DNA from: an uncultured bacterium
Lineage (GTDB): Bacteria > Oederibacteriota > PGYV01 > CAWJRG01
DNA length: 64,000 nucleotides
Assembly (NCBI GenBank): GCA_963845185.1
Contig: CAWJRG010000001.1
Coordinates: 224,001-288,000 of the forward strand
Reading direction: 5' to 3'
Every line of letters begins with the position of its first letter. Position 1 is the stretch's first letter. A program made the position numbers and the translations under genes. The notes beneath the pieces were generated by a model. The model was not told the DNA's origin, ran no database searches, and saw nothing but the letters and a program-made list of their open reading frames with translations. Below are positions 1,634-48,890 of the stretch, piece after piece.

Positions 1634-1735
1634 AGCAAGAGTTTATTTTTGCAAGCCGCCGACAGGCGCAGCAAAAATATTACTCTTGCTTAGTACCCGC
1701 TCAAGTCCGAGGCTTCAGCCGAGGACAAGTGGTAT
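1634..1735 (-). ncRNA. Candidate structured 5'-leader motif (copy 1) upstream of the oxidoreductase operon
   Basis: Two hairpins; homologous with compensatory changes to 48732-48830 and partly to 45910-45969. Confidence 0.55.
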
Positions 1736-1781
1736 TAGAAAGTTGGATAAAACAAAAAAACTTTTTAAATTTGTGGGATTT

Positions 1782-1810
1782 ATTATAATATAAATATAAT
1801 CATTTGACAA
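1782..1810 (-). promoter_or_regulatory. sigma70-type promoter for the oxidoreductase operon
   Basis: TTGTCA-17-TATAAT on the minus strand. Confidence 0.55.
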
Positions 1811-1840
1811 CGGATAATTATTGTATCCGGCTTTTCCACC

Positions 1841-1869
1841 TTGACAAAGCATAATATAGCGGATAATAT
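1841..1869 (+). promoter_or_regulatory. sigma70-type promoter, OMP gene 1
   Basis: TTGACA-17-TAATAT; homologous to the promoters at 3747 and 4726. Confidence 0.6.
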
Positions 1870-1962
1870 ATATATAATGATTAACAAAAACAGAACCAAG
1901 GAGGTGGTTTTAGTTTTATTCAATATTATTATAAAACAATATAATTCCAAAAGGAGAAAAAC

Positions 1963-2729
1963 ATGAAAAAACTCTTAATTGTACTTGCTTTAGTAACGGC
2001 TTTTGCAATCCCGTCTTTTGCGGATTTTTTCAATATCAATCTTTCAGGCGGATACACAACTCTTACAATGGCAAAAGCAAATACTTTCATACAATCAACT
2101 GCAGATAGTTTTGTGCTGAATCCCAGCGCAACCAAGCTCGGAAATGGTTTCTATGGCGCGCTCGACCTGAATTTTGCAATATTGCCCGTGCTTATGTTTG
2201 GCCCAAGGGTTGAATATATATATGCCCCGGAAGCAAAAGCCAGCGGCACGGGTTCCGAGACATTGCCGGTGCTTGGGACAGTATCAGGAACCATAACAGA
2301 TACTTTTGGCGCTTCATTAATCCCAATAATGCTTGGCATAAGCTACAAGTTGTCGCTTCCCGGCTTGCCTCTTTCACTTAAAGCAGGGGTATATGGCGGT
2401 TACGGCCTTGCGTACGCTTATCAAAATATTAATATGAGTGTTACCGGCGTTACGATACCGGGTGTAGATATCCCTTTTACCGGTTCCGGGTTCGTAGGCG
2501 AAGCGCTTTTAAGCGTTGATTTTTCCGTTGCTCCGTTTACTTCCTTCGGCCTTAATTTCGGTTACAGGACCGCGATATCTCTCAAATGAGCGTGGCAAAC
2601 GATGTTTCAATCAATGGCGTTCCAAAATCCATCACAAAAAATACTGTCCTGAAAGATTCAAGCGGCAGTGCTGTACCGTTTGATTACAGCGGTTTAATAG
2701 CGGGCTTGTCATTGACTTTTGGATTCTAA
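1963..2729 (+). pseudogene. Outer-membrane beta-barrel protein 1 (subfamily A), 1-nt frameshift near 2574
   Basis: Signal peptide and amphipathic strands. Adding one base after GYRTA gives ISQMSVAND...PFDYSGLIAGLSLTFGF*, matching paralog C-termini. May be a sequencing error. Confidence 0.8.
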
Positions 2730-2813
2730 TTATAAAGACCTCATGAAAAGGAGGTGGAATGGTTTAATTTTTATTCAATATTTATATATATTATAAACTA
2801 AAAAGGAGGAAAC

Positions 2814-3650
2814 ATGAAGAAATTTTTAATCACGGTTATTATTATTCTTTGCGCATGGTCTTTATCTTTTGCCGATGACATTGGTTTTGGAGGAGGTTTT
2901 AACTTTTTCATTGATTACACATCTGTTTCAATGGGAAAAGTAAACAGCGCGCTGGATTCTGCGAAGGGACTTCTTGAACAAGCAGGTTCATTTTTCGGTA
3001 TAACCCCGACTGAATCAAAATTAGGCAGCGGTATTCTTGGAGGCATAGCAGCGAATGTCGATCTTAAACTAATGGATACGTTCAGCGTTGGTCTCGGCTT
3101 TAGGGCCGGTTACCTTTCTGCATTTCCGGGTTCTGCAAAATTAAAGACTGATAATATCCTGGGAAGTGGTTACAGCCTTGATTTCGAGGATAATTATAGC
3201 GCATCTTTAATACCGCTTGAAGTGGGCCTTGAAGGCAAGTTTAATATTCCGGCGATTTCAGCTTCATTGGGCCTGGGCGGTTATTTAGGCTATGGCATGG
3301 CGTCAGTAAGCAACGAATGGAAACTAAACTCAACAGAGCCATTAAGCACAAATTTCGATGATACAATTCCCTACAGCGGAGGATGTCTGGTTGTGGACAT
3401 TATCGGGAATGCGTCTGTTAATATCAGTATAATATCAGTTGGCCTTGACCTTGGCTACAGGGTAGCAAATGTCAGCCATGTGACTGCCACAAAAGATTTC
3501 AGTGATACGAACTCGGGTATAACCGTTAAAAAAGGCGATACCATGAAAGACGGCAACGCAAACGGCACTTTCATGCCGGGCACCGGTAATACAGTGTCTG
3601 TTGATTTTGGCGGTTTAATTGTTGGTATAAAATTTGGAGTCGCGTTTTAA
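2814..3650 (+). CDS. Outer-membrane beta-barrel protein 2 (subfamily B)
   Basis: Signal peptide, alternating Gly/aromatic strands, GLDLGYR, terminal Phe. Confidence 0.85.
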   Translation: MKKFLITVIIILCAWSLSFADDIGFGGGFNFFIDYTSVSMGKVNSALDSAKGLLEQAGSFFGITPTESKLGSGILGGIAANVDLKLMDTFSVGLGFRAGYLSAFPGSAKLKTDNILGSGYSLDFEDNYSASLIPLEVGLEGKFNIPAISASLGLGGYLGYGMASVSNEWKLNSTEPLSTNFDDTIPYSGGCLVVDIIGNASVNISIISVGLDLGYRVANVSHVTATKDFSDTNSGITVKKGDTMKDGNANGTFMPGTGNTVSVDFGGLIVGIKFGVAF

Positions 3651-3661
3651 CTTTTGCATTC

Positions 3662-3701
3662 AATAAAAAAGGGGAGCGGTTAACGCTCCCCTTTTTTTAT
3701 T
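3662..3701 (+). terminator. Rho-independent (bidirectional-type) terminator
   Basis: AAAAAAGGGGAGCG-GTTAA-CGCTCCCCTTTTTTT. Confidence 0.9.
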
Positions 3702-3746
3702 TCAGCATTTCTTCAATCTATATCAGGCATGCTTTATAATTCATTC

Positions 3747-3775
3747 TTGACAAAACACATAAGAATAGATAACAT
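3747..3775 (+). promoter_or_regulatory. sigma70-type promoter, OMP gene 3
   Basis: TTGACA-17-TAACAT. Confidence 0.6.
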
Positions 3776-3811
3776 ATATTTAAGATAAAAAAAACTAAAA
3801 AAGGAGGAAAC

Positions 3812-4630
3812 ATGAAGAAATTTTTAATCGCGGTTATTATCATTCTTTGCGCATGGTCTTTATCTTTTGCTGATGAAATTGGTTTCGGAGGAGGCGTGAA
3901 CTTTTTTGCAGATTACACAACAGTTTCAATGGGAAAAATAAACAGCCAGGTCGATTACGTTCAAAATTACATTCAAACTATGGCTGCCGGCTTGGGTACC
4001 CCCACGGAAACAAAACTCGGCAGTGGTTTTCTTGGAGGCATAGCAGCGAATTTCGATCTTAAGCTAATGGATATGTTCAGCGTCGGCCTCGGCTTTAGGG
4101 GCGGTTATCTTTATGCGTTTCCCGGCTCTGTAAAATTAAATATTAGTAATATTTATGGATCCGGTTACAATGTGGATATCACTGATACATTTAGCGGGTC
4201 TTTGATTCCGCTTGAAATAGGTGTTTCCGGCAAAGTAAATATCCCCTCGACAGGCATATCCGCAGGACTTGGGTTATATGGAGGTATAGGCATAGCATCG
4301 GCAAGCACAGAACAGAAGTTTACCACAACCATTCCGAACATACAAAATGACGACGTTACAGTCCCATACAGCGGCACATGCGCGGTTTTTGATATTATTG
4401 GCAATGTATCTGTTACAATGAGCATAATATCGGTCGGTCTTGACCTCGGCTACAGGATAGCTGATGTTTCACAAATAAAAGCAACACAAACTATTACTGA
4501 TAATAACAGTATTTTTCCCACCAGCGTTAACAAAGGCGATGTTGCGAAAGATATAAACGGCGACGGCGGCATTATTGATGTCGATTTCGGCGGCTTGGTT
4601 GTTGGTATAAAAGTCGGCGTCGCGTTTTAA
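3812..4630 (+). CDS. Outer-membrane beta-barrel protein 3 (subfamily B)
   Basis: Paralog of 2814-3650 with a near-identical signal peptide; terminal Phe. Confidence 0.85.
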   Translation: MKKFLIAVIIILCAWSLSFADEIGFGGGVNFFADYTTVSMGKINSQVDYVQNYIQTMAAGLGTPTETKLGSGFLGGIAANFDLKLMDMFSVGLGFRGGYLYAFPGSVKLNISNIYGSGYNVDITDTFSGSLIPLEIGVSGKVNIPSTGISAGLGLYGGIGIASASTEQKFTTTIPNIQNDDVTVPYSGTCAVFDIIGNVSVTMSIISVGLDLGYRIADVSQIKATQTITDNNSIFPTSVNKGDVAKDINGDGGIIDVDFGGLVVGIKVGVAF

Positions 4631-4641
4631 CTTTTGCATTC

Positions 4642-4680
4642 AATAAAAAAAGGGAGCGTTAATCGCTCCCTTTTTTTATT
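4642..4680 (+). terminator. Rho-independent terminator
   Basis: AAAAAAAGGGAGCG-TTAAT-CGCTCCCTTTTTTT. Confidence 0.9.
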
Positions 4681-4725
4681 TCACTGGTTCTTTGATATAT
4701 ATAAGGCATGCTTTTCAATTCCTTC

Positions 4726-4754
4726 TTGACAAAGCATAAGATATTATTTAACAT
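4726..4754 (+). promoter_or_regulatory. sigma70-type promoter, OMP gene 4
   Basis: TTGACA-17-TAACAT. Confidence 0.6.
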
Positions 4755-4859
4755 GTATTTAAGGTGATAATAAAAAGAAAAACTTAAACAAGAGGAGGTG
4801 AAATAGTTTAGTTTTTATCCAATATTAATCAATATATTATAAACTTAAAAGGAGGAAAC

Positions 4860-5669
4860 ATGAGGAAATTATTAATCGCAGCGGTTCTTGTTCTTAGTTT
4901 ATCGTCTTTAACATTTGCTATTGGAGGAGGCGTGTACTTTTTTGCAGATTACACTTCAGTTTCAATGTCAAAAGCAAATAGCCAGATAGATTACATTGAG
5001 AATAATCTTAGCAACAATAACCCCTTTGGCGTTAACCCGACAGAAACAAAACTCGGCAGCGGTTTTCTCGGAGGTTTGGAAGCAAACATAGATGTTCCTA
5101 TTGTTGATATTTTTGCCATAGACGCCGGACTGCGCGGTGGTTATCTTTATGCGTTCCCGGGATCTATAAAATTGAATGCTACAAATATTATGGGCACCGG
5201 TTACAACCTGGATCTCAATGCAACATTTAACGGGTCTTTAATTCCAATTGAAATAGGCGTTGCAGGCAAATTAAATATTCCGGCAACAGGGATATCTGCA
5301 AGCCTCGGATTTTACGGAGGGTTAGGCATGGCATCTGTAAGCCAGGAAATGAAGTTGACCACAAATATTCCAGCAGGTATGGGGCCATCAAACGATGACG
5401 TTACGGTTCCATACAGCGGCACATGCCCGGTTTTTGAAATTATCGGTAATTTGTCCGCGACAATCAGCGTAATATCGATAGGCCTTGACCTCGGTTACAG
5501 GATGGCGGATGCTTCACAAATGAAGGCAACAAAGACTGTTAATGATTCCAATTTTAACATAGCTGTTAATAAAGGCGATGCTATGAAAGATGCGAACGGC
5601 GACGGCGGTAATGTAGACATTGATTTTAGCGGTTTGATTGTTGGTTTGAAAGTAGGAGTCTCGTTCTAA
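4860..5669 (+). CDS. Outer-membrane beta-barrel protein 4 (subfamily B)
   Basis: Paralog with signal peptide, GLDLGYR and terminal Phe. Confidence 0.85.
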   Translation: MRKLLIAAVLVLSLSSLTFAIGGGVYFFADYTSVSMSKANSQIDYIENNLSNNNPFGVNPTETKLGSGFLGGLEANIDVPIVDIFAIDAGLRGGYLYAFPGSIKLNATNIMGTGYNLDLNATFNGSLIPIEIGVAGKLNIPATGISASLGFYGGLGMASVSQEMKLTTNIPAGMGPSNDDVTVPYSGTCPVFEIIGNLSATISVISIGLDLGYRMADASQMKATKTVNDSNFNIAVNKGDAMKDANGDGGNVDIDFSGLIVGLKVGVSF

Positions 5670-5680
5670 TTTTATTATTC

Positions 5681-5718
5681 AATAAAAAAGGGAGCGGTTA
5701 ATGCTCCCTTTTTTTATT
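5681..5718 (+). terminator. Rho-independent terminator
   Basis: AAAAAAGGGAGCG-GTTAA-TGCTCCCTTTTTTT. Confidence 0.88.
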
Positions 5719-5748
5719 TCAACGTCTCCACAGTCTTATGGAGGGAAC

Positions 5749-6552
5749 ATGAAAAGATTTTTAATCACGCTTGTTTTGGCAACGGTTTTAGCCATTCCGT
5801 CATTTGCAAATAACTTTAATATTAGCCTTTCGGGCGGTTATACAACGCTTATAATGGCAAAAGTGAATGAATTCGTACAATCAATCCAAAATTCAGCCGG
5901 AGGGTGGGGCACTGTAACCAACCTCAACAGCGGTTATTATGCCGCGCTTGACGCAAATTTCACAGTACTTCCCTCACTCACGATAGGCCCAAGAATTGAA
6001 TTTGTCAATGCCATGGCAGGCGAATACAATTTTTCAGGTTATGTCCCGACTTTTGGGCAGTTGTCCTTTACAGATTCTTTTGGCGCTTCATTAATCCCAA
6101 TACTTTTAGGCATAAGCTATAGTACTTATTTCCCTCACATTTCCGTAAAATACGCAGTATATGGGGGTTATGGTTTTGCAGCCGCATACAACAACGCGAG
6201 TTTCTTTATGCCGGCTTCGGGACAGCTGACAGAAAACATTCCCCTTTCCGGCTCGGGCCTTGTCGGTGAAATACTGGTAAGCGGCGATTATTCTTTTGCC
6301 CGATTTTTTTCAATCGGCCTTAATCTGGGATTCAGGATGGCGAATATCCCGCAGATGAAAGCGGCAAAAGATGTTCCGCCTGTTTCCGGTATTTCCAATA
6401 TTCCGGGCGCTTCAGGTATTTACGGTATTTCCGGTTTTACAAGCGGAATAACAAAAGGCAGTGTGTTTAAAGACCAGGCAACAACCGGCAACGACCTGCC
6501 GTTTGATTACAGCGGCTTGATGACGGGTTTGGCATTTAATTTCAGTTTTTAA
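5749..6552 (+). CDS. Outer-membrane beta-barrel protein 5 (subfamily A)
   Basis: Start MKRFLITL after GGAGGG; paralog of gene 1 (FNI.LSGGYTTL.MAK, GPR.E, PFDYSGL); terminal Phe. Confidence 0.85.
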   Translation: MKRFLITLVLATVLAIPSFANNFNISLSGGYTTLIMAKVNEFVQSIQNSAGGWGTVTNLNSGYYAALDANFTVLPSLTIGPRIEFVNAMAGEYNFSGYVPTFGQLSFTDSFGASLIPILLGISYSTYFPHISVKYAVYGGYGFAAAYNNASFFMPASGQLTENIPLSGSGLVGEILVSGDYSFARFFSIGLNLGFRMANIPQMKAAKDVPPVSGISNIPGASGIYGISGFTSGITKGSVFKDQATTGNDLPFDYSGLMTGLAFNFSF

Positions 6553-6568
6553 TTTAATTCACTTTAAT

Positions 6569-6596
6569 GTAGAGACACGCCATGGCGTGTCTCTAC
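6569..6596. repeat. REP palindrome (GTAG type)
   Basis: Perfect palindrome GTAGAGACACGCCATGGCGTGTCTCTAC. Confidence 0.92.
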
Positions 6597-6630
6597 TGCT
6601 TTCAGATTTTTAGTTTTGCAGGAGGAAAAC

Positions 6631-7382
6631 ATGAAAAAATTTTTGATTACGCTCGCTTTATAATAACCCCTGCCATTGCCTTATTTTCAGAAACCCTTAA
6701 CTTTAATTTTTCGCTTGGATATGCAACAACAGCAATAAATGACATTGATAATGCCCTTCAAAATATCCCGAATGCCACAGGCTCAGTACCCGCGCCGAAC
6801 AGCGGTAATTACTTTGCTTTTGAAGCAAATTACAAATTACAAAACGGTTTTATGATAGGCCCCAGGATAGAGTTCATAAATACGGATATGTATACCTGGC
6901 AATTTGGTTATTATAACGACTATACTGCCGCTTTAATGCCAATACTTATTGGCGTAAGTAACAAGTATGATTATCATGAAATGACAGTTTTGGGTTATCC
7001 AGGAGTACCAATTTTTATAAAAGTTGGATTATATTTAGGTTATGCCCTTGGAAGTGCATATAATAACATTAAAAAGAATTATCCCGGTACGGAAATGTCG
7101 GTTTTCTATGGGTCCACAATACGGACTATTGAAACAGTATCAATGAATGGTTCAGGCTTTGTCGCCGAAGCACTTATAAGCTTTAATTGCGGTTTTCTCG
7201 CTCTCAACATTGGTTACAGGGAAGCCTATATTCACCAAATGACATATTCGAATAATCTTTCAGATTCCAATCTCGGGATATATGTCAATAAAGGGGCTGT
7301 GGTCAAGGATTTAAACAACAAAACTTTGGGGTTTGATTTCAGCGGTTTCATTTTCGGTCCGGCAATAAATATCGGGTTTTAA
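6631..7382 (+). pseudogene. Outer-membrane beta-barrel protein 6 (divergent subfamily A), 1-nt frameshift near 6660
   Basis: GGAGG-ATG gives MKKFLITLAL*; adding one base joins IITPAIALFSETLNFNF...GPAINIGF. May be a sequencing error. Confidence 0.78.
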
Positions 7383-7387
7383 TTTAA

Positions 7388-7413
7388 CAGACAGCCCGCC
7401 GGGTCGTCTCTAC
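7388..7413. repeat. Degenerate REP, variant type
   Basis: CAGACAGCCCGCCGGGTCGTCTCTAC resembles the reverse complement of the REP at 23031. Confidence 0.65.
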
Positions 7414-7452
7414 CTTTAATCTTATAAAAATTTTAATTCTACGGGAGGAAAC

Positions 7453-8307
7453 ATGAAGAAGATTTTAGTCGCAGCAGTTCTTTTTGCCGGTTTATCGCCT
7501 TTGACAAACGCAATGGATATAACACAGTCAACGGGAACGAATACAAATCCTTCTACTCTTGGATGGGGTGTGAACATTTTTGCCGATTACACTACAGTTT
7601 CAATGGGAAAAGCAAACAGCCAGATAGATTACGTAGAAAGCGGAACAAAGGCTGCATTCGGCGCCTTAGGTATCGGCCCGACAGAAATAAAATTCGGCGG
7701 CGCTTTTCTTGCAGGCTTAACCGCAAATATAGAAATCCCTTTTCTTGATATTTGGGCCTGTGATATTGGTTTAAGGGGCGGTTATCTTAATGCATTTCCG
7801 GGTTCTGTACAGTTGAATTCCAGCGATATTATGGGGTCCGGCTTGAACATAGATTTAGCCGACACATATAATGCGTCTTTGATTCCGCTTGAAATAGGTG
7901 TTGCCGGTAAAATAAATATCCCAAATACGGCAATTTCAGCAAGTCTTGGAATATACGGAGGTTATGGCATAGCATCAGGAAGCGAAGAAGTAATGGTTAA
8001 CACAAACATTCCAGCGGGTATGGGCGCCCCTGCAAACGACAGCGTTACAATTCCGTACGGCGGCTCATGCGCGGTTTTTGAAATTATCGGCAATGCGTCC
8101 ATAAAAATCAATATGTTATCTTTAGGCCTCGACCTCGGCTACAGGATAGCCGATGTTTCCCGGGTGAAGGCAACAAAAACCGTCACTGATTCCAATTTCG
8201 ATTTAAATGTGCAGAACGGTGCTGTTTTCAAAGACAAAAACGGCAATGCCGTGGATTTTGATTTCGGCGGCTTGATTGTCGGCTTGAAAACCGGCATCGA
8301 GTTCTAA
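7453..8307 (+). CDS. Outer-membrane beta-barrel protein 7 (subfamily B)
   Basis: Paralog with ADYTTVSMGK, GLDLGYR and terminal Phe. Confidence 0.85.
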   Translation: MKKILVAAVLFAGLSPLTNAMDITQSTGTNTNPSTLGWGVNIFADYTTVSMGKANSQIDYVESGTKAAFGALGIGPTEIKFGGAFLAGLTANIEIPFLDIWACDIGLRGGYLNAFPGSVQLNSSDIMGSGLNIDLADTYNASLIPLEIGVAGKINIPNTAISASLGIYGGYGIASGSEEVMVNTNIPAGMGAPANDSVTIPYGGSCAVFEIIGNASIKINMLSLGLDLGYRIADVSRVKATKTVTDSNFDLNVQNGAVFKDKNGNAVDFDFGGLIVGLKTGIEF

Positions 8308-8333
8308 TTTTATCATCGTAGAGACACGCCATG

Positions 8334-9947
8334 GAGTCTGTCTCAAAAGCCTCTTAATTCTTTGACATAAATGGTATAATGGTTTCAAAATTTAGCGAAG
8401 GAGAAACCAAATGCCAACGATAAGAGCCGATAGAAATCAAATGTATCTACTGCCACCGGCAATAGAAGATTGGGTTTCAAAAGATCATTTAGCTCGATTT
8501 GTCGTAGAATTCGTAGAAGAATTACCGCTTGAAGAGATGGGTTTTAAAATGGAAGAAGAAACCGGAAGACCGGGATATTTTGTAGATCTTTTACTTGGGG
8601 CATGGATGTACGGCATACTGGAAGGAAAAAAGAGCAGCAGAAAAGTTGAAAAAATGACTTACGATTCAATGGGGATGATATGGATAACCGGGAATAATCA
8701 TCCCGACCATAATACGCTATGGAGATTTTTTAAAGGAAATAAAGAGCAGATAAGGGTTTTACTGAAGGAGACGGTGCGTGTGGCAACAAACAACAATTTG
8801 GTTGGTTTTGAAATTCAAGCCGTGGACGGCACAAAAATACAGGCAGATGTAAATAAGGAAAAGACCAAAACAATAAAAGACATGAATAAAAAAATACAAG
8901 AATTAGACAGAGAAATAGACAAAATAATGGTGGAAATTGAGAAAAATGACGAACAAGACGATGAAGAGGGCAAAAGTAAGTGCGGAATGCCAAAAGAATT
9001 GCAGGAAAAGGAGAAACTGCGTCAGGTAATAAGAGAACATATAGAACGTATGAAAAGTGAAGGAAAAACAACTGAAAACCCCACAGATAGAGACAGCCGG
9101 TTCATGATGACAAGAGGTAAAGGACTGCAACAGGCATATAACTCACAGGTTGTTGTGGACGCAAAGAAACAGATAATTGTGGCAGAGAATGTGACAAACA
9201 AGGAATCGGATGCTCACATGCTGAATGATATGATAGAAAAAGCAGAGTCGAATACCGGACAAAAATCAGGAGTAACGCTTGCGGATGGAGGGTATTATTC
9301 ACCGGAAGAACTGGCAAAAGCCAAAGAAGAAAAAAGGAATATAATTGTTAACTTGCCGGAGGATGACAGCGATAGGCCGTATGGCAAAGCGCATTTTAAA
9401 TACGACAAAGAAAAAAACGAATATGTATGTCCTAAAAATGGCAGGCTTGAATATACCAGTATAAGGAAGAAGAAAAACGGAAAAGAGACAATGATATACC
9501 GATGCGGGGATCATAGGGATTGTATTTATAAATACGAATGCAGCAAGGTAAAATCCGGAAGGATAATAGAAGCAAATAAGCATGAGTATGAGGAGATAGT
9601 GTCAATATACAGAGAAGAAGCTAGGGTCAATAACTGGAAAGAACAGCTTCGAAAGAGAAAAACAATAGTTGAGCCATTATTGGGACGTATAAAAAACGTA
9701 CTTGGTTTTACAAGATTTAGTGTTAGAGGAATCGAAAGCGTAAAAACACAATGGTCTTTTATATGCGCCGCCCATAACATAAAGACAATGTATGCCTTGT
9801 GGAGGGAAGGTAAGGTTAAATTAAGGTTCGCAACCTGACAAGAAAAGAACCACAAATCGAAAAGAAGAGAAATAATAAAGATAGGGGCTAAAAAACGCGA
9901 TAAGTGTAGGCAATGCAAGGCGTTTAAAAGAGTTTTGAGACAGACTC
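8334..9947 (+). mobile_element. IS1182-family insertion sequence
   Basis: 15-bp perfect terminal IRs GAGTCTGTCTCAAAA / TTTTGAGACAGACTC, CATG target duplication, single transposase. Confidence 0.92.
8411..9838 (+). CDS. IS1182-family DDE transposase
   Basis: GRPGY, SSRK.E, PDHNTL..F, AVDGTKIQA, TD.DSRFM, YNSQ, ADGGY, CP..G, R..IVEP..G.IK motifs. Confidence 0.93.
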   Translation: MPTIRADRNQMYLLPPAIEDWVSKDHLARFVVEFVEELPLEEMGFKMEEETGRPGYFVDLLLGAWMYGILEGKKSSRKVEKMTYDSMGMIWITGNNHPDHNTLWRFFKGNKEQIRVLLKETVRVATNNNLVGFEIQAVDGTKIQADVNKEKTKTIKDMNKKIQELDREIDKIMVEIEKNDEQDDEEGKSKCGMPKELQEKEKLRQVIREHIERMKSEGKTTENPTDRDSRFMMTRGKGLQQAYNSQVVVDAKKQIIVAENVTNKESDAHMLNDMIEKAESNTGQKSGVTLADGGYYSPEELAKAKEEKRNIIVNLPEDDSDRPYGKAHFKYDKEKNEYVCPKNGRLEYTSIRKKKNGKETMIYRCGDHRDCIYKYECSKVKSGRIIEANKHEYEEIVSIYREEARVNNWKEQLRKRKTIVEPLLGRIKNVLGFTRFSVRGIESVKTQWSFICAAHNIKTMYALWREGKVKLRFAT

Positions 9948-41427: not shown

Positions 41428-41852
41428 TTATTTTTCGTCCTTTGTCCGGCAAAATACTCCATTTTTACGGACACTAAAAGCAGCCATAAAAATATTAGGG
41501 TAACTAATACTCCCGTAATTCCGTTGAATAATTCCTCTTTAAACATCCTGATTGCATCGGCTGCCCCGTTTAAAACGAAAAAAACCATTGCAGTATATAT
41601 TGCCCACTTTTGCCTTTTTATCATGCCTACTCCAACAACAAATAACGCGGCCGAAAGCGTCAATAAAATCGGTGCTACCATCTGTCCGTAATAGTGTATT
41701 TTTGCGGCCGCACCCTTTCTCAGCTTCCATATTGCGTCAAGTGGTGTCCCTGGAACATATATAGTGAAACTCACGAGCAGACACATTGCTACCGCAAAAA
41801 ATAAAAATACTGTAACAATCAGGCTTTCGTAAGGCATTTTTTGCTTTTCCAT
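41424..41852 (-). CDS. Four-TM membrane protein
   Basis: Hydrophobic segments; ATGA-type coupling to tetR. Confidence 0.65.
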   Translation of the reverse strand: MEKQKMPYESLIVTVFLFFAVAMCLLVSFTIYVPGTPLDAIWKLRKGAAAKIHYYGQMVAPILLTLSAALFVVGVGMIKRQKWAIYTAMVFFVLNGAADAIRMFKEELFNGITGVLVTLIFLWLLLVSVKMEYFAGQRTKNK

Positions 41853-41935
41853 TATTTACCTTTCTCCCCCTTTAACAAAGGGGGCCAGGGGGTTTTTACT
41901 TTTCTACGTTAATTCCAAATCCAAAATCCGTAATC

Positions 41936-42017
41936 AAAAATGACCTACTGGTCATTTTTGTAGATTTATACACAATTGAATTGTATTTGTCAAGCAAATA
42001 ATGACCGCATGGTCATT
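41936..42017 (-). promoter_or_regulatory. Promoter flanked by two palindromic operators (likely TetR sites)
   Basis: AATGACC-N4-GGTCATT at 41939-41956 and 42000-42017; TTGACA(41993-41988)-17-TATAAA(41970-41965). Confidence 0.75.
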
Positions 42018-42084
42018 TTTTTAAAAAAATTATAGTATTTCAATACAAGCCAAGGTCGGAGCACTATAGTCGAAGGAATATAGA

Positions 42085-42831
42085 TTAGTTGGAATTTAAT
42101 ATTTCTTTTAAGCGAGTTTTAACATCTCTTAAATCGACTTTCCTAAATTTTCCTTTATTATTATCAAAAATAAGCACTTTACCTTTTGTTTCTTTTTCCT
42201 TTTTTTTATTGTATATTTTAATATATATAGCCAATATTTTTATACCAAACTCAGGATTTTTTTTACTTGATTTTGTATTTTGATTTACAATTTCACCAAA
42301 CCACTCTTTCAATTTGTTAATAGAATTCTTAGTGTCGCCAGAGTCTTCCGCTCGATGAATATGTATTAAGTGACCACGCTTTTTCGAATGAGATACTTTA
42401 TTATAATCTCTTAAAATATGGTCTCGATTATTTGTGTTTTCAGTCCCAAATTCAATTATATAAGCAGGCTCTACATATCCTTTGGACGATGAATCTATTT
42501 TTAGTTTCTTATTTTTAATCTCTCCTATCGTTCCTTTATCTAAAATAACTATATCACTTCTTTCATAATCTTTTTGGTTGTTACCATATTCTGTGTGTAC
42601 TAACATTGTTTTATATAACCCCTTTGAGGGTTTTCCATTTTTCCAACCAAGATGCAATCCTGTTTTGCTTAAATTGTTTTTATTATCCGGATTGAGAACA
42701 TTAATTTTCATTAATTCGCGTGAAACTAACACATGTATATCGATTTCAGATAAAAAAATTAATGGCTCATTACAAATTTTATTCAAAATATTAATTATTT
42801 TTTCCTCTATTTTTATACATATTTTCTCCAT
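42085..42831 (-). CDS. AT-rich hypothetical protein, possibly nuclease-fold
   Basis: 248-aa ORF with E.D...VHTEY...RSDIVILD...IIEFG spacing. Confidence 0.6.
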   Translation of the reverse strand: MEKICIKIEEKIINILNKICNEPLIFLSEIDIHVLVSRELMKINVLNPDNKNNLSKTGLHLGWKNGKPSKGLYKTMLVHTEYGNNQKDYERSDIVILDKGTIGEIKNKKLKIDSSSKGYVEPAYIIEFGTENTNNRDHILRDYNKVSHSKKRGHLIHIHRAEDSGDTKNSINKLKEWFGEIVNQNTKSSKKNPEFGIKILAIYIKIYNKKKEKETKGKVLIFDNNKGKFRKVDLRDVKTRLKEILNSN

Positions 42832-43027
42832 TTTTCGTCCTTAAATTTTTATCGTTGTTTTTGAAAGCAGAAACATAGTATACTACCTCGTCCCCCCGCG
42901 TTTTTCAGCGATAGTGTCCTCAAACTCAAAAAGAATTGACTACTTGTATCAGTTAATTAATTGTACCAAACGTAAGGGTTTGCATAAAGCAAATTTTTAT
43001 GTATACTTTCATCGAGGAGAGTGACAA

Positions 43028-43360
43028 ATGACTGACAACCAACAGAATAACGGATTGAAGAAACCAAAGTTAACCCCAGAACAACTTTTTGATATTTATC
43101 AGGAATGTTCCTTACCCAACGCGCCAGTAAAAGCCATCCTGGAACGGTGCGGGCTTAAACCGTGGCATCTTATTGCCTTGCGTAAGAGAATCAAGCAAGC
43201 TGCCCTGTCAGAACTATCGAATCCGGCAAAATCCGGCAGAAAGAAGTCCATGGTTCCCGTAGAAAGCCTTGCTCAAGTGGATAAGGAACTTTCTCAAACA
43301 AAGGACGCGCTGGCTGCTGTCGGGCATGAGCTTGCGTTGTTAAAAAAAAAGATGAGTTGA
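43028..43360 (+). CDS. IS3-family OrfA
   Basis: HTH-like N-terminus and coiled coil; ends in LLKKK with an A9G slippery site at 43342-43351. Confidence 0.78.
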   Translation: MTDNQQNNGLKKPKLTPEQLFDIYQECSLPNAPVKAILERCGLKPWHLIALRKRIKQAALSELSNPAKSGRKKSMVPVESLAQVDKELSQTKDALAAVGHELALLKKKMS

Positions 43361-44358
43361 GTCTCAAGGGTCCTTTGAAGGGGCACTATCCGGCCCAAGT
43401 TAGGCAGATAGTTGTTATCACTATAAACGAAGCCGTACTATCCGGTTTCACGCAGAAAAGAGCTTGTTTGATCTTTGACATAGACGCCAGAAAATTCAGA
43501 CGCTGGGCTAAACTAAAAAAGAGAACGCCAAGAACGGCATGTAACAAACTGTTGCCGTTTGAAAAGACATCGATTATTGACTCTGCCTTTAGACCTGAAA
43601 ATATAGGCAAGCCATTGAGCCATATTTACGTATATGGCCATAATTCAGGCGCTTTTCATGCTTCTCTATCGACTGTATACAGGTATCTAAAAGCCGAAGA
43701 TCTCGTAAAACCATTCGAACCCAAAAAACGGAAATCTAATCATGTTTCGGCTCACGATCTTTTGGATGCTGGATTTTCCCTTTTGACCTATGACGGTTCA
43801 TGCTTCAAAACCGAGTCCGGCGTAACTGTTTGGTCCATACCGGTTCTGCTTCTGCCTTACAGGTATCTGCTGCATATCGGACACAGTTTACGCGGCGTCA
43901 GTTCAGCGGATTTACGGGATGCCGTTGCTCAAGCCATACTTGAACTGCCGGATGACTTTCCTGACAACATAGTGGCTTTTTCAGACCGCGGATCTGCTAT
44001 GAAAGCCAAAAAGACTGTTGCCTTCCTGGAAGATGTGCTAAAAATTCCTGTACGCTACGGACGCCCAAACACGCCGGATGACGAACCATGGATTGAGGCC
44101 CTGAATAAAAACTCGAAGTATCACAGGGATGTGCCGGCTGTCTTTCCAACGGTTTCAGATGTACTGGACTGGTTAGAAAAATTTAAACCACTGCATAACA
44201 ACGATCCTCATAGCTCGCTACATTATGTTACACCGGCTGAGGCGTTCGCGGGAAAAATGGAGGTGATTTTAAGCCAGAGAAAGAACAACCTGATCACTGC
44301 AAACATTATAAGGTTGGAGGCTTTCAGGGCTTCCAAGCTTCAAGTAGTGATTGGGTGA
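43357..44358 (+). CDS. IS3-family OrfB, DDE integrase core
   Basis: S.STVYRYL, TYDGS, SDRGSAM, D.PWIEA, HSSL.YVTP; -1 frame relative to orfA. Confidence 0.82.
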   Translation: MSLKGPLKGHYPAQVRQIVVITINEAVLSGFTQKRACLIFDIDARKFRRWAKLKKRTPRTACNKLLPFEKTSIIDSAFRPENIGKPLSHIYVYGHNSGAFHASLSTVYRYLKAEDLVKPFEPKKRKSNHVSAHDLLDAGFSLLTYDGSCFKTESGVTVWSIPVLLLPYRYLLHIGHSLRGVSSADLRDAVAQAILELPDDFPDNIVAFSDRGSAMKAKKTVAFLEDVLKIPVRYGRPNTPDDEPWIEALNKNSKYHRDVPAVFPTVSDVLDWLEKFKPLHNNDPHSSLHYVTPAEAFAGKMEVILSQRKNNLITANIIRLEAFRASKLQVVIG

Positions 44359-44368
44359 CGGTTTGAGG

Positions 44369-45121
44369 TCAATTAAGCTGAAAAACTCCGGTCCAGTTAG
44401 TACTCTCATTTATAATTACCTTTACTAACGTTTCTGATGCATCGTACCATTCCTGTTTAAAATCATTGCCTTTACCGTCATAGAAGGACTTATCCGCCAT
44501 AGTCAACTTTCCTGATGCATCGTAATATTCCCATTTAACATTATTGCCTTTACCATCATAAAAAAACCTACTAATTGCAATCAATTCTCCTGACGCATTG
44601 TACCTTTCACATTTAATTTTGTTATTCTTATCATCATATAAGAATTTATCCGCTTCAGTCAACTCCCCCGATGCATCATACGCATTATCCTTAAAATCAT
44701 TGCCTTTCTTATCATAAAAGTGGTTTATCACATCCGTCAACTCCCCTGATGCATTATATATTTTACCTTTAAGCGGCTTTCCTTTATTATCATAGAAAAC
44801 TTTAGTAATTTCTTTCAATTCTCCCGAAGCATCGTAAAATTTCTCCTTAATCTTGTTGCCTTTACCGTCATAGAAGGACTTAATCGCCATAGTCAACTCT
44901 CCCGATTCATTGTACACTTCACATTTAACTTCATTACCTTTATCATCGTAAAATTGTTTCTCCATACCAATTAACTTACTTTTATCTATCTTTCCAAAGC
45001 TAACACCATACGCTGAAGAAGTTACTACTTGGTTCACATACTTAGCTTCCAAACTCATAAATAAACTCATAAACAAAACTACAAACGACACACAAACAAT
45101 TAATTTTTTGTGAGTAGACAC
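44369..45121 (-). CDS. Exported repeat protein (7 x 26-aa YD/MORN-like repeats)
   Basis: Signal peptide; repeats FYDxKGN...YDASGEL; 5' end lies in the intron, 3' end runs into the IS end. Confidence 0.8.
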   Translation of the reverse strand: MSTHKKLIVCVSFVVLFMSLFMSLEAKYVNQVVTSSAYGVSFGKIDKSKLIGMEKQFYDDKGNEVKCEVYNESGELTMAIKSFYDGKGNKIKEKFYDASGELKEITKVFYDNKGKPLKGKIYNASGELTDVINHFYDKKGNDFKDNAYDASGELTEADKFLYDDKNNKIKCERYNASGELIAISRFFYDGKGNNVKWEYYDASGKLTMADKSFYDGKGNDFKQEWYDASETLVKVIINESTNWTGVFQLN

Positions 45122-45894
45122 CTTTTATAACCTCCTTTGGTTACTTAATGCCCCTCTCAGAACCGAACGTGACCGTTTCGGTCATTCGGCTCCACGGGAA
45201 TACTTCCTAATACGATGACAGCGCATAGGTTAGATGATATACCATTATACTCCGTAATTGCCCAGGGCTTTATCTTTCTTTAGCTCTCCAGGACATTCCA
45301 AAAGAGAACCCTCATTGAGCAGGTGTATATGTGTCTCTTAACTCAACTTTGGATTTTCCTTTGCACGCATAGTCAGGGTCTTAAGTTTCGTTGCCATTCC
45401 ATCTCCACCTCTGTGTGTGGCGGATGTATCCCTTACGACCCCACGCTTTTCCCTCTATCCCCTTTTCTCCATCTACTTTCATAGACTTCATCGATACTAT
45501 GGGATAGTCAGACTGCCGGGACATCTTTTACGGCTCCTCATCTTTTGGAATTTGTCGCCGCATACTCTCCTTTTGAGGATGTCTCGGCTCTCCCGAGTTC
45601 ATATCTGTTCCTTGACATCTTGACACGGCCTTAGACCCCGTCGGGTTCCCACTCTCTCGCCTTTTATGATTGTGGGACTGCTGCCTGCTTCGTTATGAAC
45701 AGTGTCGGCCTCCGACACGATGGCGATTTCGGGGCTCAATACCTTCACTTGCGTTGTATCCCGATGTCTCCCGCCTTCCAGCTTCATTTAGTTCGTTGCC
45801 TCCCTAAATGTGGAATTTGGTATTGGGCTGGTGGCTGACCTTTGCCCAAGCTGGATTTTCACCAGCGCGAACCGATACGCTTTTCTCGGCGCAC
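45110..45894 (-). ncRNA. Group II intron, ORF-less (internally deleted IEP)
   Basis: 5' GUGCG; domain V GAGCCGAAUGACCGAAACGGUCACGUUCGGUUC (45192-45160); domain VI with bulged A ending CUACUCAC. Confidence 0.88.
45245..45397 (-). pseudogene. Remnant N-terminus of group II intron reverse transcriptase
   Basis: MATKLKTLTMRAKENPKLS*ETHIHLLNEGSLLECPGELKKDKALGNYGV* resembles the IEP N-terminus/RT0 (HLL...L.K.KAPGIDGV). Confidence 0.75.
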
Positions 45895-45909
45895 TCATTT
45901 ACGCCTCCC

Positions 45910-45969
45910 TTGATGATGTTTATTTTGTCGAACCGTCAACAGGCGAAAACAAAATATTACAGCACTCAA
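45910..45969 (-). ncRNA. Candidate leader hairpin motif (copy 3, RBS-proximal stem only)
   Basis: AUUUUGU...CGCCUGUUGACGGUU...ACAAAAU followed by AAGGGAGG-N5-AUG. Confidence 0.5.
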
Positions 45970-46015
45970 TTCCAGCAAAACGTTAGTGAAGCTGGATTCA
46001 TCTTATCCATATATA

Positions 46016-46043
46016 ATTATACCCCTTCTTTTCACGCTGTCAA
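46016..46043 (-). promoter_or_regulatory. Consensus sigma70 promoter driving the intron-containing gene
   Basis: TTGACA-16-TATAAT. Confidence 0.7.
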
Positions 46044-46073
46044 TTAATATGCATCTTCTCAGCCCATTTTTCC

Positions 46074-46430
46074 CTATCTTTTCTTCATCCACTTTTCACC
46101 CACTTCACAACCTGCTTGAATATCGCATGCCCTATCTTGCCGAAAAGCGGCTTCGGCACATGGTTCTCCGCCTGCGGTGGAACCCCGCCGACAGGAATCG
46201 GTGGTCCCTTAATAACCACCGGAGGTTACTGGAGCTACCGCTTCCAGTCCAAATAGCTAATATGCGACGTCCGCCGAAGCAGAACTTTCTGCGTAGGCGG
46301 ATAATGAGTTCCCTCCGAAAAGGCCATAGTCCCGAGCGAAGTCGAGCGGATATAATTTCATCACCAACTGGAGTTGGGGGGAATTTCTTTCCGGATTATT
46401 ATATTGTGCACCAGCTCAAAGCCGGGGTTT
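46074..46430 (-). pseudogene. Duplicated 3' end of the ParB-like gene, interrupted by element copy 3
   Basis: GFELVHNII|TQAENHVPKPLFGKIGHAIFKQVVKWVK versus GFELAHNIITQAENHVPKSLLGKIGHAVFKQVVKWVK at 47453-47586. Confidence 0.8.
46177..46395 (-). mobile_element. Non-autonomous multi-hairpin element, copy 3 (219 bp, two internal insertions)
   Basis: Same ends as copies 1 and 2; empty site visible at 47556/47557. Confidence 0.8.
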
Positions 46431-46594
46431 GAAGTACTTACAGTTTCTAGTTTATGATTTCTAGTTTCTAGTGCAGTTGAGCTTTACTTGTCATTACTTA
46501 CCACTTTCCCATTACAACTTACAACGTCCTTTTCCTTTTCTTTGCCTGGAAACTTGAAACTAGAAACTAGAGACTTGCCTGAGATTTCCCCGGC

Positions 46595-46948
46595 TTACCT
46601 GCGCGCGGCGGCCCGTCTGTGTCCCGGGGAATTAACAAGTTCCAGCCTTAAGCTTTTACCAAGGCCATTCGCTATTTTTTTTAAGGTCTGATATTTCGCG
46701 TCGTCAATATTTTCCATCGCGCGTGATAAAACAAAAGGATTTATCCCCGCATTTTTGGCAAGGGCGTATTTGGTCATATGCTTTTTTTTCAGTTCTTTAT
46801 TTACCTTTTCCATGAAATAAAAAAGCTCCATTTCATCGGCATAGGCTTTGCGCCCTTCTTCGCTTTTACCGGCTTCGTCAAAAATCTTTTGAACCTCATC
46901 CTTTGGCGCGATTTTTAAGTCCGCTTCAGTAATTTTGATTTTTTTCAT
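46595..46948 (-). CDS. XRE/HTH antitoxin (HigA-like)
   Basis: MTKYALAKNAGI....LSR...TLKKIANGLG; follows the toxin with overlap. Confidence 0.8.
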   Translation of the reverse strand: MKKIKITEADLKIAPKDEVQKIFDEAGKSEEGRKAYADEMELFYFMEKVNKELKKKHMTKYALAKNAGINPFVLSRAMENIDDAKYQTLKKIANGLGKSLRLELVNSPGHRRAAARR

Positions 46949-47289
46949 GTTGTTTTTCTCCTTTCCAGCATAATGTTTTTTATTATATTCCCTTTCTCAT
47001 ACTCCCGCCTGTTTTTCTTCTTCTGGTTTTTCTCCACAAAAGAATTGACAAACTGCGCGTGATTGCCCGACCAGAAATAAATCAGCCTGTATTCGATATT
47101 GTTAAAGCCCGGCCTCAATTCGTAAAGATTTGTAAAACCCTCGATTTTATCGGAATAAGGCTTTCTGATGTCGTGCCCTTTAATCAGCAGTATGTCTATA
47201 TACGCCTGAATTTTCTTTTTCAAACCGTCCGATAAATCCATAATTTGCTGTTTTACTGTTTCATTCAAACTGTATGTCACGGGCTCCAC
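46945..47289 (-). CDS. RelE/ParE (HigB/Gp49-like) toxin
   Basis: PYSDKIEG..NLYELR...YRLIYF...F.EK; GTG start after AAAGGAG. Confidence 0.8.
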   Translation of the reverse strand: MEPVTYSLNETVKQQIMDLSDGLKKKIQAYIDILLIKGHDIRKPYSDKIEGFTNLYELRPGFNNIEYRLIYFWSGNHAQFVNSFVEKNQKKKNRREYEKGNIIKNIMLERRKTT

Positions 47290-47313
47290 GCGTTCATCTC
47301 CTTTATCAATAAG

Positions 47314-47342
47314 ATTATACACATTTATGTGTACATTATCAA
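47314..47342 (-). promoter_or_regulatory. TA promoter with palindromic operator
   Basis: TTGATA-17-TATAAT; TACACAT-N2-ATGTGTA at 47318-47333. Confidence 0.72.
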
Positions 47343-47388
47343 GCGTTATTTATGATCCTCAATTTCTTTTATTACATATATTTCCATT

Positions 47389-47452
47389 ACGAGCATCCTT
47401 TATGAACATCTCTTACGAACATTTTTATAGAACATTTCTTCGAACATCTTTC
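47389..47452. repeat. Five tandem 12-13-bp degenerate repeats (core GAACAT)
   Basis: acgagcatccttt/atgaacatctctt/acgaacattttt/atagaacatttct/tcgaacatcttt. Confidence 0.65.
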
Positions 47453-48715
47453 CTATCTTTTCTTCATCCACTTTTTCACCCACTTCACGACCTGCTTGAA
47501 CACCGCATGCCCTATTTTGCCTAAAAGCGACTTCGGCACGTGGTTTTCCGCCTGCGTTATAATATTGTGCGCCAGCTCAAAGCCAGAATTCAATTTGGGA
47601 TTTTCAGAGTTTGGAATTTGTGATTCACTTACCATACCCTCACCCTGAACATCTTGAGCTTTTGAACCTTGAACTTTTCCTACCTCTTGCCCCCCTTGAA
47701 CATTGAGCCTTGAACCTTGAACTTCTTTTATGATCGCCGGCAAGTCTGCCCAATACGGGTTATCCTCCAGTTTGCTATCCTTGTGTCCCAGCCACCATAT
47801 TGCTCCTGCTGCGCCAAGCGCTGCCAATACGCCGCTATCCTCGTCCGCTATTATAATATGAACACCACCCTTTGCCGGACTTTTTATCTGAAAATATCCA
47901 GTCTCCCTCATCTCCTGTAACAGCTTGGCATACCGCCCGTCTTGCCCATCGCCCGCCGAATGTTCCCCCTCACCCAGACCCTCTCCCGCAAGGGGCGAGG
48001 GGTGTGTTTTGCCGCCCTCCCCGAAGGATTCCGGTGTATTGCCTGCTTTTATCCATGCAGCTATCTTTTTGGCTTGTTTTTCAGTCATTTTCCGCTCAAT
48101 AAGCACTTTTATGGTCTTTTCCATCTTATCCACGTCATCTGGATAGCCATTCGCAAGCCCAGTAAGGGCAATAACAGCAGATTCAGGTATCTTCCAGCCT
48201 GTGGATAACTCCGGATTCCGGAGTTGTCCACATATTTGCTCCCTTGCCGCTGTATTCAACAGCCCCATTACCTTTGCCACATTCCCTACATATTGAAACC
48301 TTAACTGGAGCCTGTCCGCGACTTCCTGATTGTTGAGATCAGGGCATAAAGCCATGTATTTTTCAATACCCAGGTAGTTGTCAAACCAGTTCGGCGGCTC
48401 CGCTTTATTGCCCATAATCAACTCCAGCATCTCATCCGCCGGGCTGAGGCCCTTCACAACAACCGCCTCTATCTCGGTCCAGCCGTTCTGCTTAGCGCCT
48501 GCGTACCTGTAGTGCCCGCATAGGATGTAATAATTGATTCCCTGACCCAGTAGGCCATCGCCGGCCTTTCTATCGTCAGTCAAAAGCGCCAGCTTGACAG
48601 GGTTCAGCAGCCCGTCCTTATCCATGGACTTCGCGACAGCATCCGTAATGTCCTGCTGCAGGAAGCTCCTCGGGTTGTTTGGATGCGGCTTAATCTCGGA
48701 AATAGGTATCTTCAT
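47453..48715 (-). CDS. ParB/Srx N-terminal domain protein with HTH
   Basis: IKPHPNNPR, GLLNPV, ILCGHYRY.....GW.EI; HTH NQEVADRL. Confidence 0.8.
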   Translation of the reverse strand: MKIPISEIKPHPNNPRSFLQQDITDAVAKSMDKDGLLNPVKLALLTDDRKAGDGLLGQGINYYILCGHYRYAGAKQNGWTEIEAVVVKGLSPADEMLELIMGNKAEPPNWFDNYLGIEKYMALCPDLNNQEVADRLQLRFQYVGNVAKVMGLLNTAAREQICGQLRNPELSTGWKIPESAVIALTGLANGYPDDVDKMEKTIKVLIERKMTEKQAKKIAAWIKAGNTPESFGEGGKTHPSPLAGEGLGEGEHSAGDGQDGRYAKLLQEMRETGYFQIKSPAKGGVHIIIADEDSGVLAALGAAGAIWWLGHKDSKLEDNPYWADLPAIIKEVQGSRLNVQGGQEVGKVQGSKAQDVQGEGMVSESQIPNSENPKLNSGFELAHNIITQAENHVPKSLLGKIGHAVFKQVVKWVKKWMKKR

Positions 48716-48731
48716 ATTATAACCTCCCCTT

Positions 48732-48890
48732 AGATAGCGTTTGTTTTGTCAAGCCGTCAACAGGCGCTGACAAAACACTACGCTATCTTAGTACCCGCTC
48801 CAGTCATGGTTTTACCCTGACAAGCGGTATCAATTTGTTTTGCCAAGCCGATCAAGTCCGAGGCTACTGCCAAGGACAAGCGGCGCTTGA
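48732..48890 (-). ncRNA. Candidate leader motif (copy 2) plus a nested variant
   Basis: Covarying stems relative to 1634-1735; promoter TTGAAC-17-TATAAT at 48948-48920. Confidence 0.55.

Follow-up and report, generated by a model that had tools for sequence, protein, structure and literature searches.

Dispersed, structured intergenic repeats such as REP/BIME, ERIC/IRU, BOX and Correia stabilise upstream mRNA segments or alter the expression of their neighbours, and the RNase III processing hairpins of phage T7 and the 5' stabiliser stem-loops of Gram-positive bacteria are single, gene-specific signals. The nearest described elements, likened here by description, are REP2 of Neisseria and the plasmid inverted repeats IR-A/IR-B of Borrelia. 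[quoted passage not shown] Here we describe a two-hairpin repeat of ~100 nucleotides (nt) that came to light in a 64,000-nt stretch of DNA (the window; GenBank contig CAWJRG010000001.1, positions 224,001 to 288,000) from an uncultured bacterium of the phylum Oederibacteriota. A first-pass annotation, made from the letters of the window alone, had reported a covarying hairpin motif in the 5' leaders of three genes. We found that these three sites are not private leaders but members of one lineage-restricted, dispersed repeat.

Like REP2 and the Borrelia repeats, the unit contains two internal stem-loops and stands immediately upstream of ORFs. It differs from them in that it ends before the GGAGG of the Shine-Dalgarno (SD) sequence, in that promoters are separate (2-102 nt away) or missing, and in that a third of the copies are intercistronic, at least 149 copies exist and copies in relatives stand before terminators. 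With REP/BIME, ERIC/IRU, BOX and Correia it shares dispersal, intergenic structure and a modular or mosaic build, together with presumed co-transcription; those families, however, keep no fixed SD register and are found in either orientation. Terminal inverted repeats, which our repeat lacks, are moreover a feature of Correia and ERIC, and REPs are 20-40 nt long and linked to RAYT genes, which are absent from this genome. A ~20-bp hairpin that has an internal loop and lies between cistrons, or immediately 5' of an SD sequence, recalls the T7 RNase III hairpins and the Gram-positive stabilisers, but here it belongs to a 150-copy repeat family, and a cap or processing role would follow by analogy. 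T4-type phages have mobile regulatory cassettes (PMC2839356) and Beggiatoaceae have intergenic TAACTGA repeats (PMC4679880), which are also repeated, portable upstream modules before unrelated genes; judged by titles and abstracts, their sequence and architecture differ. Searches of the published literature on the presumed lineage and on repeats combined with SD sequences and stem-loops returned no description of this family: the main genome paper of that lineage says nothing of repeats, hairpins, introns or small RNAs, and the search on repeats gave analogues only.

A covariance model built from 61 genomic copies of the two-hairpin repeat (R1) gave at least 149 matches at E <= 0.01 in the 3.5-Mb genome, in which nhmmer returned 183 hits. 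Each unit runs from (U/C)ACCGC... to ...AUCAAG. In hairpin A a helix of 6 bp, in which one G is bulged, leads through a UU/UUGA internal loop to a distal stem that varies; hairpin B consists of two helices of 8-10 bp parted by an AAU/AA loop and closed by a variable apex. The ends of the unit are not mutually inverted, the inverted repeats being internal, unlike the terminal ones of a DDE-type miniature inverted-repeat transposable element such as Correia. The conserved 3' end, ...AUC(A/U)A(A/G), is the same as the unit boundary in a tandem array (below) and as the end of orphan copies that have no GGAGG. The first-pass annotation had taken both the small internal loop and the apex CGCCUGUYGRCGGYU for conserved. 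This is true of the loop (AAU/AA), as it is of the core of hairpin A, across subfamilies; the apex proved to be conserved in one subfamily only, and variants elsewhere in the genome include CGCCUUCGGCU, CGCUGUUGACGCU and CGCUGGAAGCU. Within hairpin A (alignment A1; for example L016, L028, L036 and L054 compared with L001), base 4 of ACCNCU also co-varies with base 3 of GANCGGGU in a non-Watson-Crick manner, G occurring with G, and A or U mostly with A, a possible sign of a non-canonical contact or of subfamily linkage.

The range of the repeat is narrow. Between 1 and 18 matches each were present in 11 of 23 genomes of the same order, and there was none in 17 genomes of other orders within the phylum (0/17); the largest expansion among the genomes compared is that of the present genome. 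Plasmid and phage collections contained no match. A strict pattern run over the genome collection found one locus, in an uncultured bacterium, a result that is uninformative on range. The motif had not been recognised as a known riboswitch, and comparison with Rfam 15 agrees: a gathering-threshold scan of the whole window hit two group II intron models only, neither of them on the repeat, and scans at permissive E values gave no match around copy 2 and only chance miRNA or snoRNA matches of <=16 bits around copy 1 (copies are numbered as in Table 1).

The reported co-variation of the stems was borne out on this larger set. RNAalifold, applied to the 61 copies, yielded 26 pairs, compensatory changes being seen in 17, and among 108 model-aligned matches, drawn from this genome and five relatives, both sides change in 21 of the 26 pairs. 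In these matches 94.5% of the cells are paired compared with 74.1% after shuffling, a value reached by 0 of 500 shuffles, and the covariation score is 0.484 as opposed to 0.133 for shuffled and 0.04-0.08 for slid partners, figures that come from an alignment fitted to the model and from copies many of which descend from few subfamilies. The covariation proves that the hairpins are under constraint; it does not tell which strand or which molecule is constrained.

Copies are placed in a narrow register relative to genes. A sense start codon opening at least 50 codons lies no more than 45 nt downstream of 80 of the 108 near-full copies, and in 65 of those 80 it falls 12-16 nt past model position 110; an SD motif is present for 71 of the 108. 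In the controls, such ORF starts accompanied 22 of 108 copies in antisense and 728 of 2000 random positions. Ten of the 28 exceptions without a sense ORF start precede another copy. Terminal copies are sense-oriented, and their last helix stops 3-4 nt 5' of the following gene's GGAGG. In this genome, then, neither orientation nor position is random, in line with the leader placement first noticed in the window, but the rule does not extend to the sister family f10 of related genomes, to which we return below. Some orphan copies without an SD sequence (C9:676573, C5:35499, C9:671467, C9:656619, C1:208477 and C5:32826) precede a shared AAGUUUUCAAUUUUCAAU-type motif, which is possibly another repeat module.

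The genes behind the repeat have no common pathway. When 40 of them were tested, those above NCBIfam cut-offs included argG, metK, gatC, rplC (L3), murC, gcvH, fabD, glpK, pyrB, purQ and pstB, and others code for ABC ATPases, a hydrogenase subunit, a response regulator and lipoproteins. A sense promoter-like site, 2-102 nt away, was found within 150 nt of 34 of the 74 SD-abutting copies, compared with ~19% in shuffles and 21 of 74 on the opposite strand. In 26 of the 74 a same-strand ORF ends no more than 80 nt upstream, and in 12 of these no more than 12 nt upstream. By position, the copies are shown to occupy predicted 5' UTRs or to fill intercistronic spacers.

At the three window copies, the SD core is unpaired in all centroid folds; the minimum-energy folds likewise leave it unpaired in copies 1 and 3, and copy 2 pairs it weakly with downstream coding sequence. 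Several conventional roles were tried on the repeat and rejected. An intrinsic terminator was discarded after a scan found no terminator-like site overlapping the three copies: hairpin B is followed by AAGGAGG instead of a U-tract. Pairing with 16S rRNA as a translational enhancer was dropped because the conserved apex and loops of the repeat pair with this genome's 16S gene no better than shuffles (longest runs 10, 9, 6 and 7 nt, equalled by 57-98% of shuffles). The apex TTGAC and the TTGAGC of hairpin A have no properly spaced -10 box, judged from the sequence alone, and a promoter within the repeat was set aside. The upstream remnants described below, on a reading of the flanks, belong to other stem subfamilies than the copy behind them, which speaks against their pairing alternatively with hairpin B.

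Comparison with relatives revealed empty sites. In 23 of 23 relatives the rpsJ-rplC spacer is without the repeat, measures ~45 nt or less and usually reads TAA(A)CGGAGG; here, the repeat stands between the TAA and the GGAG without altering how far the SD lies from the start codon. The leader of the oxidoreductase operon in the window has an orthologous copy of ~90% nucleotide identity in the closest metagenomic relative, L159, whose protein is 90% identical in amino acids. In the more distant L160-L162 (74-79%) the repeat is missing and the promoter runs straight to AGGAG, and L163, which begins inside the oxidoreductase gene, is uninformative on the leader. These comparisons show the repeat, at the level of sequence, to be an insertion adjoining a pre-existing SD that is not part of the unit. 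Because GGAGG already stands at the same spacing in the element-less relatives in both comparisons, the repeat supplies no RBS. The proposal that it might do so is further contradicted by orphan and tandem units, which end before any GGAGG.

L159 carries a second copy 1.9 kb downstream of the first, which, in the 6 kb compared, has no counterpart at the syntenic site here. At that site, the pre-SD slot of orthologous genes, L159 has its two-hairpin copy (5425-5526), and the present genome has (C1:222307-222416, just beyond the window) an unrelated 110-nt double hairpin made of a CCCUCUCCCGUCAAGGGAGAGGG-type repeat with ~20 partial copies genome-wide. Both occupants stop exactly at UAGGAGA. One pre-SD slot holds different repeats in two relatives, and different repeats can therefore share a slot.

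Within the window, R1 matched four times only, always on the minus strand (Table 1), and sequence together with the model confirmed the three leader sites as members of one repeat. Copies 1 and 2 share the 5' hairpin A (ACCRCUUGUC...GACUKGAGCGGGUAC) and the long 3' hairpin B, in which both helices differ between the two copies through paired changes. The stem changes quoted in the first-pass annotation are as written (AGCAAGAGU/ACUCUUGCU versus AGAUAGCGU/ACGCUAUCU), and so are the three versions of the second helix. Copies 1 and 2 are predicted to fold as first proposed, at -45.5 kcal/mol (z -3.7) and -51.9 kcal/mol (z -5.7), respectively; the fold of copy 3, which ends at AGGGAGG and is covered by nhmmer over model positions 61-123 only, is weak (z -1.4). 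A promoter scan recovered a sigma70-like site 5' of each copy (10-12 of 12 matches), and each copy abuts a purine-rich SD sequence (AAGGG(U)G, GGGGAGG and AGGGAGG, respectively) followed by ATG (1620, 48715 and 45898). The genes concerned are unrelated, as had been stated and as the domain search found: a 75-amino-acid 4Fe-4S subunit followed by a POR_N/PFOR_II subunit (Pfam) behind copy 1, a ParB_N protein (Pfam) with its ATG at 48715 behind copy 2, and behind copy 3 an RHS-repeat gene that a group II intron splits.

Table 1. Repeat copies, associated signals and the group II intron in the window (positions of the 64,000-nt stretch)
Feature	Position	Strand	Evidence and remarks
Copy 1, full unit (hairpin A + hairpin B)	1632..1737	-	R1 106.7 bits; leader of 2-oxoacid:ferredoxin oxidoreductase operon
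Copy 2, full unit	48730..48832	-	R1 99.7 bits; leader of ParB_N-domain gene
Copy 3, 5'-truncated and divergent, hairpin B only (~45913-45972)	45909..45999	-	R1 47.7 bits
Hairpin-A-only piece, absent from the first-pass list	48848..48882	-	R1 23.9 bits, E 0.002, model positions 7-40
Vestige of an earlier, stacked copy: hairpin-A-like module, then hairpin-B 3'-arm-like stretch	48833..48895	-	R1 and sequence
AAGGGUG SD-like tract and ATG (1620-1618), directly 3' of copy 1	1618..1633	-	sequence
Sigma70-like promoter TTGTCA-17-TATAAT, upstream of copy 1	1782..1810	-	11/12 matches
Sigma70-like promoter TTGAAC-17-TATAAT, upstream of copy 2	48920..48948	-	10/12 matches
Sigma70-like promoter TTGACA-16-TATAAT, upstream of copy 3	46016..46043	-	12/12 matches
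ORF-less group II intron, ~4 nt into the ORF behind copy 3 (ATG 45898-45896)	45108..45894	-	RF02005 106.3 bits, RF00029 49 bits

Between copies 2 and 3, at 46595-47322 on the minus strand, lie Gp49-like (DUF891) and HTH_3 genes in a toxin-antitoxin-like arrangement, and an rve_3 integrase-core ORF (43357-44358, plus strand) adjoins the gene that holds the intron. With the ParB-like gene included, this part of the window looks like a mobile island.

Stacking and truncation are recurrent in the family. In one tandem array, 6.6 units recur every 100 nt exactly, with 95% matches (C9:916520-917176 of this genome; L091 3021-3676, minus strand); an ORF that exceeds 944 codons lies ~190-250 nt downstream. 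Genome-wide, a remnant of the hairpin-B 3' arm precedes 49 of 156 hairpin-A starts (18 in the control), and a 5' flank ending like the repeat's own 3' end precedes 28 of the 156 (1 in the control). Some copies consist of the 3' half of hairpin B only and yet abut an SD sequence. From the stacked and truncated copies at SD sequences it follows that the 3' end is fixed and the 5' extent varies, which fits serial insertion at the junction of element and SD with decay of the older copies, or copying started from the 3' end.

Other repeats of the genome intermingle with the two-hairpin unit. A second repeat of ~65 nt, also with two hairpins (GGGUAGUUU...AAACUACCC and GUCAAAUAGUCC-ACA-GGACUAUUUGAC), has 55 copies, none of them in the window (examples: C10:372021, C10:573223, C5:574708 and C10:306378). 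It is nested in the apex of hairpin B in 20 copies and in the loop of hairpin A in 10, and these 30 nested copies of the 55 mark hairpin loops as insertion targets in this genome. In chimeric copies (C5:740340, C5:749287, C9:654089 and C10:122607) a different hairpin module, CAUGUCCAUGCNAAGCAUGGAG, stands in place of hairpin A and of hairpin B's 5' arm, the apex and 3' arm of B being kept; the repeat family is accordingly modular.

Group II introns occupy a neighbouring position at gene starts. The family recognised by RF02005 and RF00029 has 7 copies in this genome, of which the one in the window is a 0.79-kb derivative inside the RHS-repeat gene. The others are at C11:61535-63445, C10:383307-385219, C10:831396-833307, C9:699944-701857, C9:811164-813075 and C9:845003-846915. 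These six hold an insert of ~1.1 kb, and in the one checked (L245) a 512-codon open frame matches RVT_1. All seven lie directly behind GGAGG-N7-8-ATG(A), ahead of an A run, in genes starting MKK... Such homing to the translation-initiation region is unusual.

At about even odds (a probability of roughly 0.5), we favour the reading that the repeat is a palindromic module of the insertion type, non-autonomous, which is transcribed along with its gene and serves as a passive RNA cap or insulator. Copying would be anchored on a purine tract 3' of the module, namely AAGGAGG here and an A-run plus GG before terminators in the sister family. Transcribed with the gene, the module would form two very stable hairpins and leave the SD core free. 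At cistron borders it could act as a passive cap or insulator, a barrier to exonucleolytic decay from either side that would also shield the RBS from upstream sequence, with no ligand- or gene-specific sensing. Of the interpretations offered by the first-pass annotation, the selfish element is the best fit, given at least 149 dispersed copies, stacked and tandem units, and presence or absence between relatives, although its supposed supply of an RBS has to be given up. A gene-specific cis-regulator or riboswitch is disfavoured by the diversity of the downstream genes and by the SD core being unpaired in centroid folds; a protein-binding or processing RNA is possible.

A number of observations weigh against the cap or insulator reading. 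G-U pairs are not enriched in the stems (22, with 39 A-C, among 2578 cells), and the antisense strand, with z about -8, folds no less well than the sense strand, so that the sense RNA is not identified as the selected molecule. Transcription of the repeat, the ends of its transcripts and its effects on stability and translation are all inferred from the DNA. As to spread, this genome, which is 99.4% complete, yielded 0 matches to Y1_Tnp (PF01797), for which positive controls matched in 6 of 14 genomes, and 0 to the TnpB-type domain (PF07282). It also holds no long gene-carrying version of the repeat; at one locus only do the 5' and 3' parts of the repeat lie 0.3-2.5 kb apart, with ordinary TPR and membrane-protein genes inside. 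Identity of 3-nt flanks at 11 of 74 copies (5.2 +/- 1.9 by permutation) is weak and ambiguous as a target-site duplication, and is also explicable by stacking on older copies.

To the same side of the balance belongs the sister family f10, found among 24 repeat copies from relatives (its copies are those of G014, G019, G020 and G023; in another relative, G001, the two ORF-preceding copies both abut an SD sequence). The f10 copies are antisense to both flanking genes and do not lie at an RBS. A few bases behind them come an A-run and a GC hairpin, as a rule with a T-run after it, which form the bidirectional terminator of the convergent gene; by reading of the sequences, a T-run follows the hairpin in about 11-14 of 20 copies, and the A-run, which is the U-tract for the convergent gene, varies less than the T-run of the sense strand. 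Unrelated housekeeping genes lie on either side (RadC, FtsK, PheS, RF3, a DEAD-box helicase, MTHFR and GH9). In four genomes from two genera, orthologous f10 copies stand at the same terminator and have perfect stems, with fully compensated changes in hairpin B; that the fold persists there suggests a function at host level, more than that of a passive passenger. A TATTAT(A) box ends 0-1 nt before many f10 copies, and no sense-strand sigma70-like site was found directly upstream in 3 of 3 loci scanned. The placement of f10 would fit a stand-alone small-RNA gene or, since an A-run plus GG resembles AAGGAGG, insertion by a purine tract.

We consider it rather unlikely, if well worth keeping in view, that the host has instead selected the repeat as a structured RNA with a partner of its own, which could be an RNA-binding protein or an endoribonuclease (RNase III, for example). 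It would then, as a leader, mark ~100 mRNAs for processing just 5' of the SD or for common translational control, and in the sister families it would be a stand-alone small RNA acting in trans or as a decoy. In favour of this are conserved unpaired bases amid variable stems (the UU/UUGA loop, the bulged G and GUAAU/AAAC) and hairpin B with its ~20 bp and internal loop. The f10 loci lend further support, since the element sits there between two opposite-strand and unrelated genes, is followed by a hairpin and T-run, often has the TATTAT(A) box on its 5' side and retains its fold in orthologues through compensatory changes. Against it, the same loci have no sense sigma70-like site directly upstream (3 of 3 scanned), a less constant T-run than A-run and no linked partner gene; G-U pairs are not enriched; and related genomes carry anywhere from 0 to at least 149 copies, an unusual spread if an RNA-protein system were essential. 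A riboswitch, RNA thermometer or other sensor controlling translation of the downstream gene appears very improbable. The compact conserved fold adjoins the SD and, with no Rfam match, could be a new class, but the genes downstream share no pathway, the SD core is not sequestered in centroid folds, no terminator-like site occurs at the window copies, the apex and stems are freely replaceable, copies occur in tandem here and next to terminators in relatives, and orthologous leaders in relatives do without the repeat.

The lack of strand preference would be natural if selection acted on DNA and the RNA fold were a by-product, as in a REP/REPIN or an IS200/IS605-type PATE mobilised by Y1 (HUH) transposase, or an attC-like site; we regard this as unlikely. 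Both strands fold equally well, A-C mismatches are not rarer than G-U pairs, copies are stacked and truncated, and the 65-nt repeat is nested in loops of hairpins A and B. As in IS200/IS605 ends, PATEs and REPIN-RAYT, the hairpins are subterminal, with neither terminal inverted repeats nor a clear target duplication. The bottom-strand flank would read CCTCCTT, or CC and a T-run, just 5' of the unit, as in elements inserting 3' of a short target, and oriented placement by a short constant flank (GGAGG, or an A-run plus GG), if it reflects a target rule, would likewise recall IS200/IS605, PATEs and REPIN-RAYT. The two element ends of IS200/IS605 resemble each other, but hairpins A and B are unlike, Y1 and TnpB-type genes are missing from the genome, and Y1_Tnp, found in 27 of 40 relatives, occurs irrespective of the repeat. 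For an integron attC site, dispersal before housekeeping genes such as rplC, argG and murC, with no cassette array, argues against the idea, no search for IntI having been made. The absence of a transposase is accommodated by a copy-and-paste process anchored at the 3' end, in which an RNA or nascent strand is copied by the reverse transcriptases (RTs) of group II introns or by template switching at SD microhomology. The 3' end of the repeat is fixed at the SD and its 5' extent varies from the 3' half of hairpin B through B, A+B and remnant+A+B to arrays; the genome holds at least six putatively RT-encoding group II introns homing to GGAGG-N7-8-ATG, and it also has the largest expansion of the repeat. 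The RNA intermediate is hypothetical, however, the copies carry neither the terminator nor the poly-U tail of a source transcript, and deletion at hairpins could equally give 5' truncations; we hold the process to be improbable. Its more specific form, a bacterial leader resembling a short interspersed element (SINE), would be a small structured transcript, in sister families the product of a stand-alone small-RNA gene, whose copying starts at the 3' end and whose copies land at purine tracts, in this genome exactly before SD sequences, possibly by way of group II intron RTs; it is in our estimate a long shot of similar standing.

If the cap or insulator reading is true, about one gene start in 25-30 (assuming ~3000-3500 genes) would open with the same 100-nt folded module, in single-nucleotide register against the RBS, even inside the conserved S10 ribosomal-protein operon. 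The repeat would then be a natural counterpart of the synthetic 'insulator' parts that standardise translation, and it raises the question of how a transposase-less repeat finds the base just 5' of GGAGG. For annotation, a few copies seen in isolation look like riboswitches or private leaders and would seed false calls of novel cis-regulatory RNAs. The dual habit of the family, a leader here and a terminator-adjacent unit with a kept fold in f10, suggests a further function as RNA or DNA. Were the SINE-like alternative true, the translation-initiation region would be a shared landing pad for two retro-elements, and uncultured bacteria would have a general route to uniform, structured 5' leaders.

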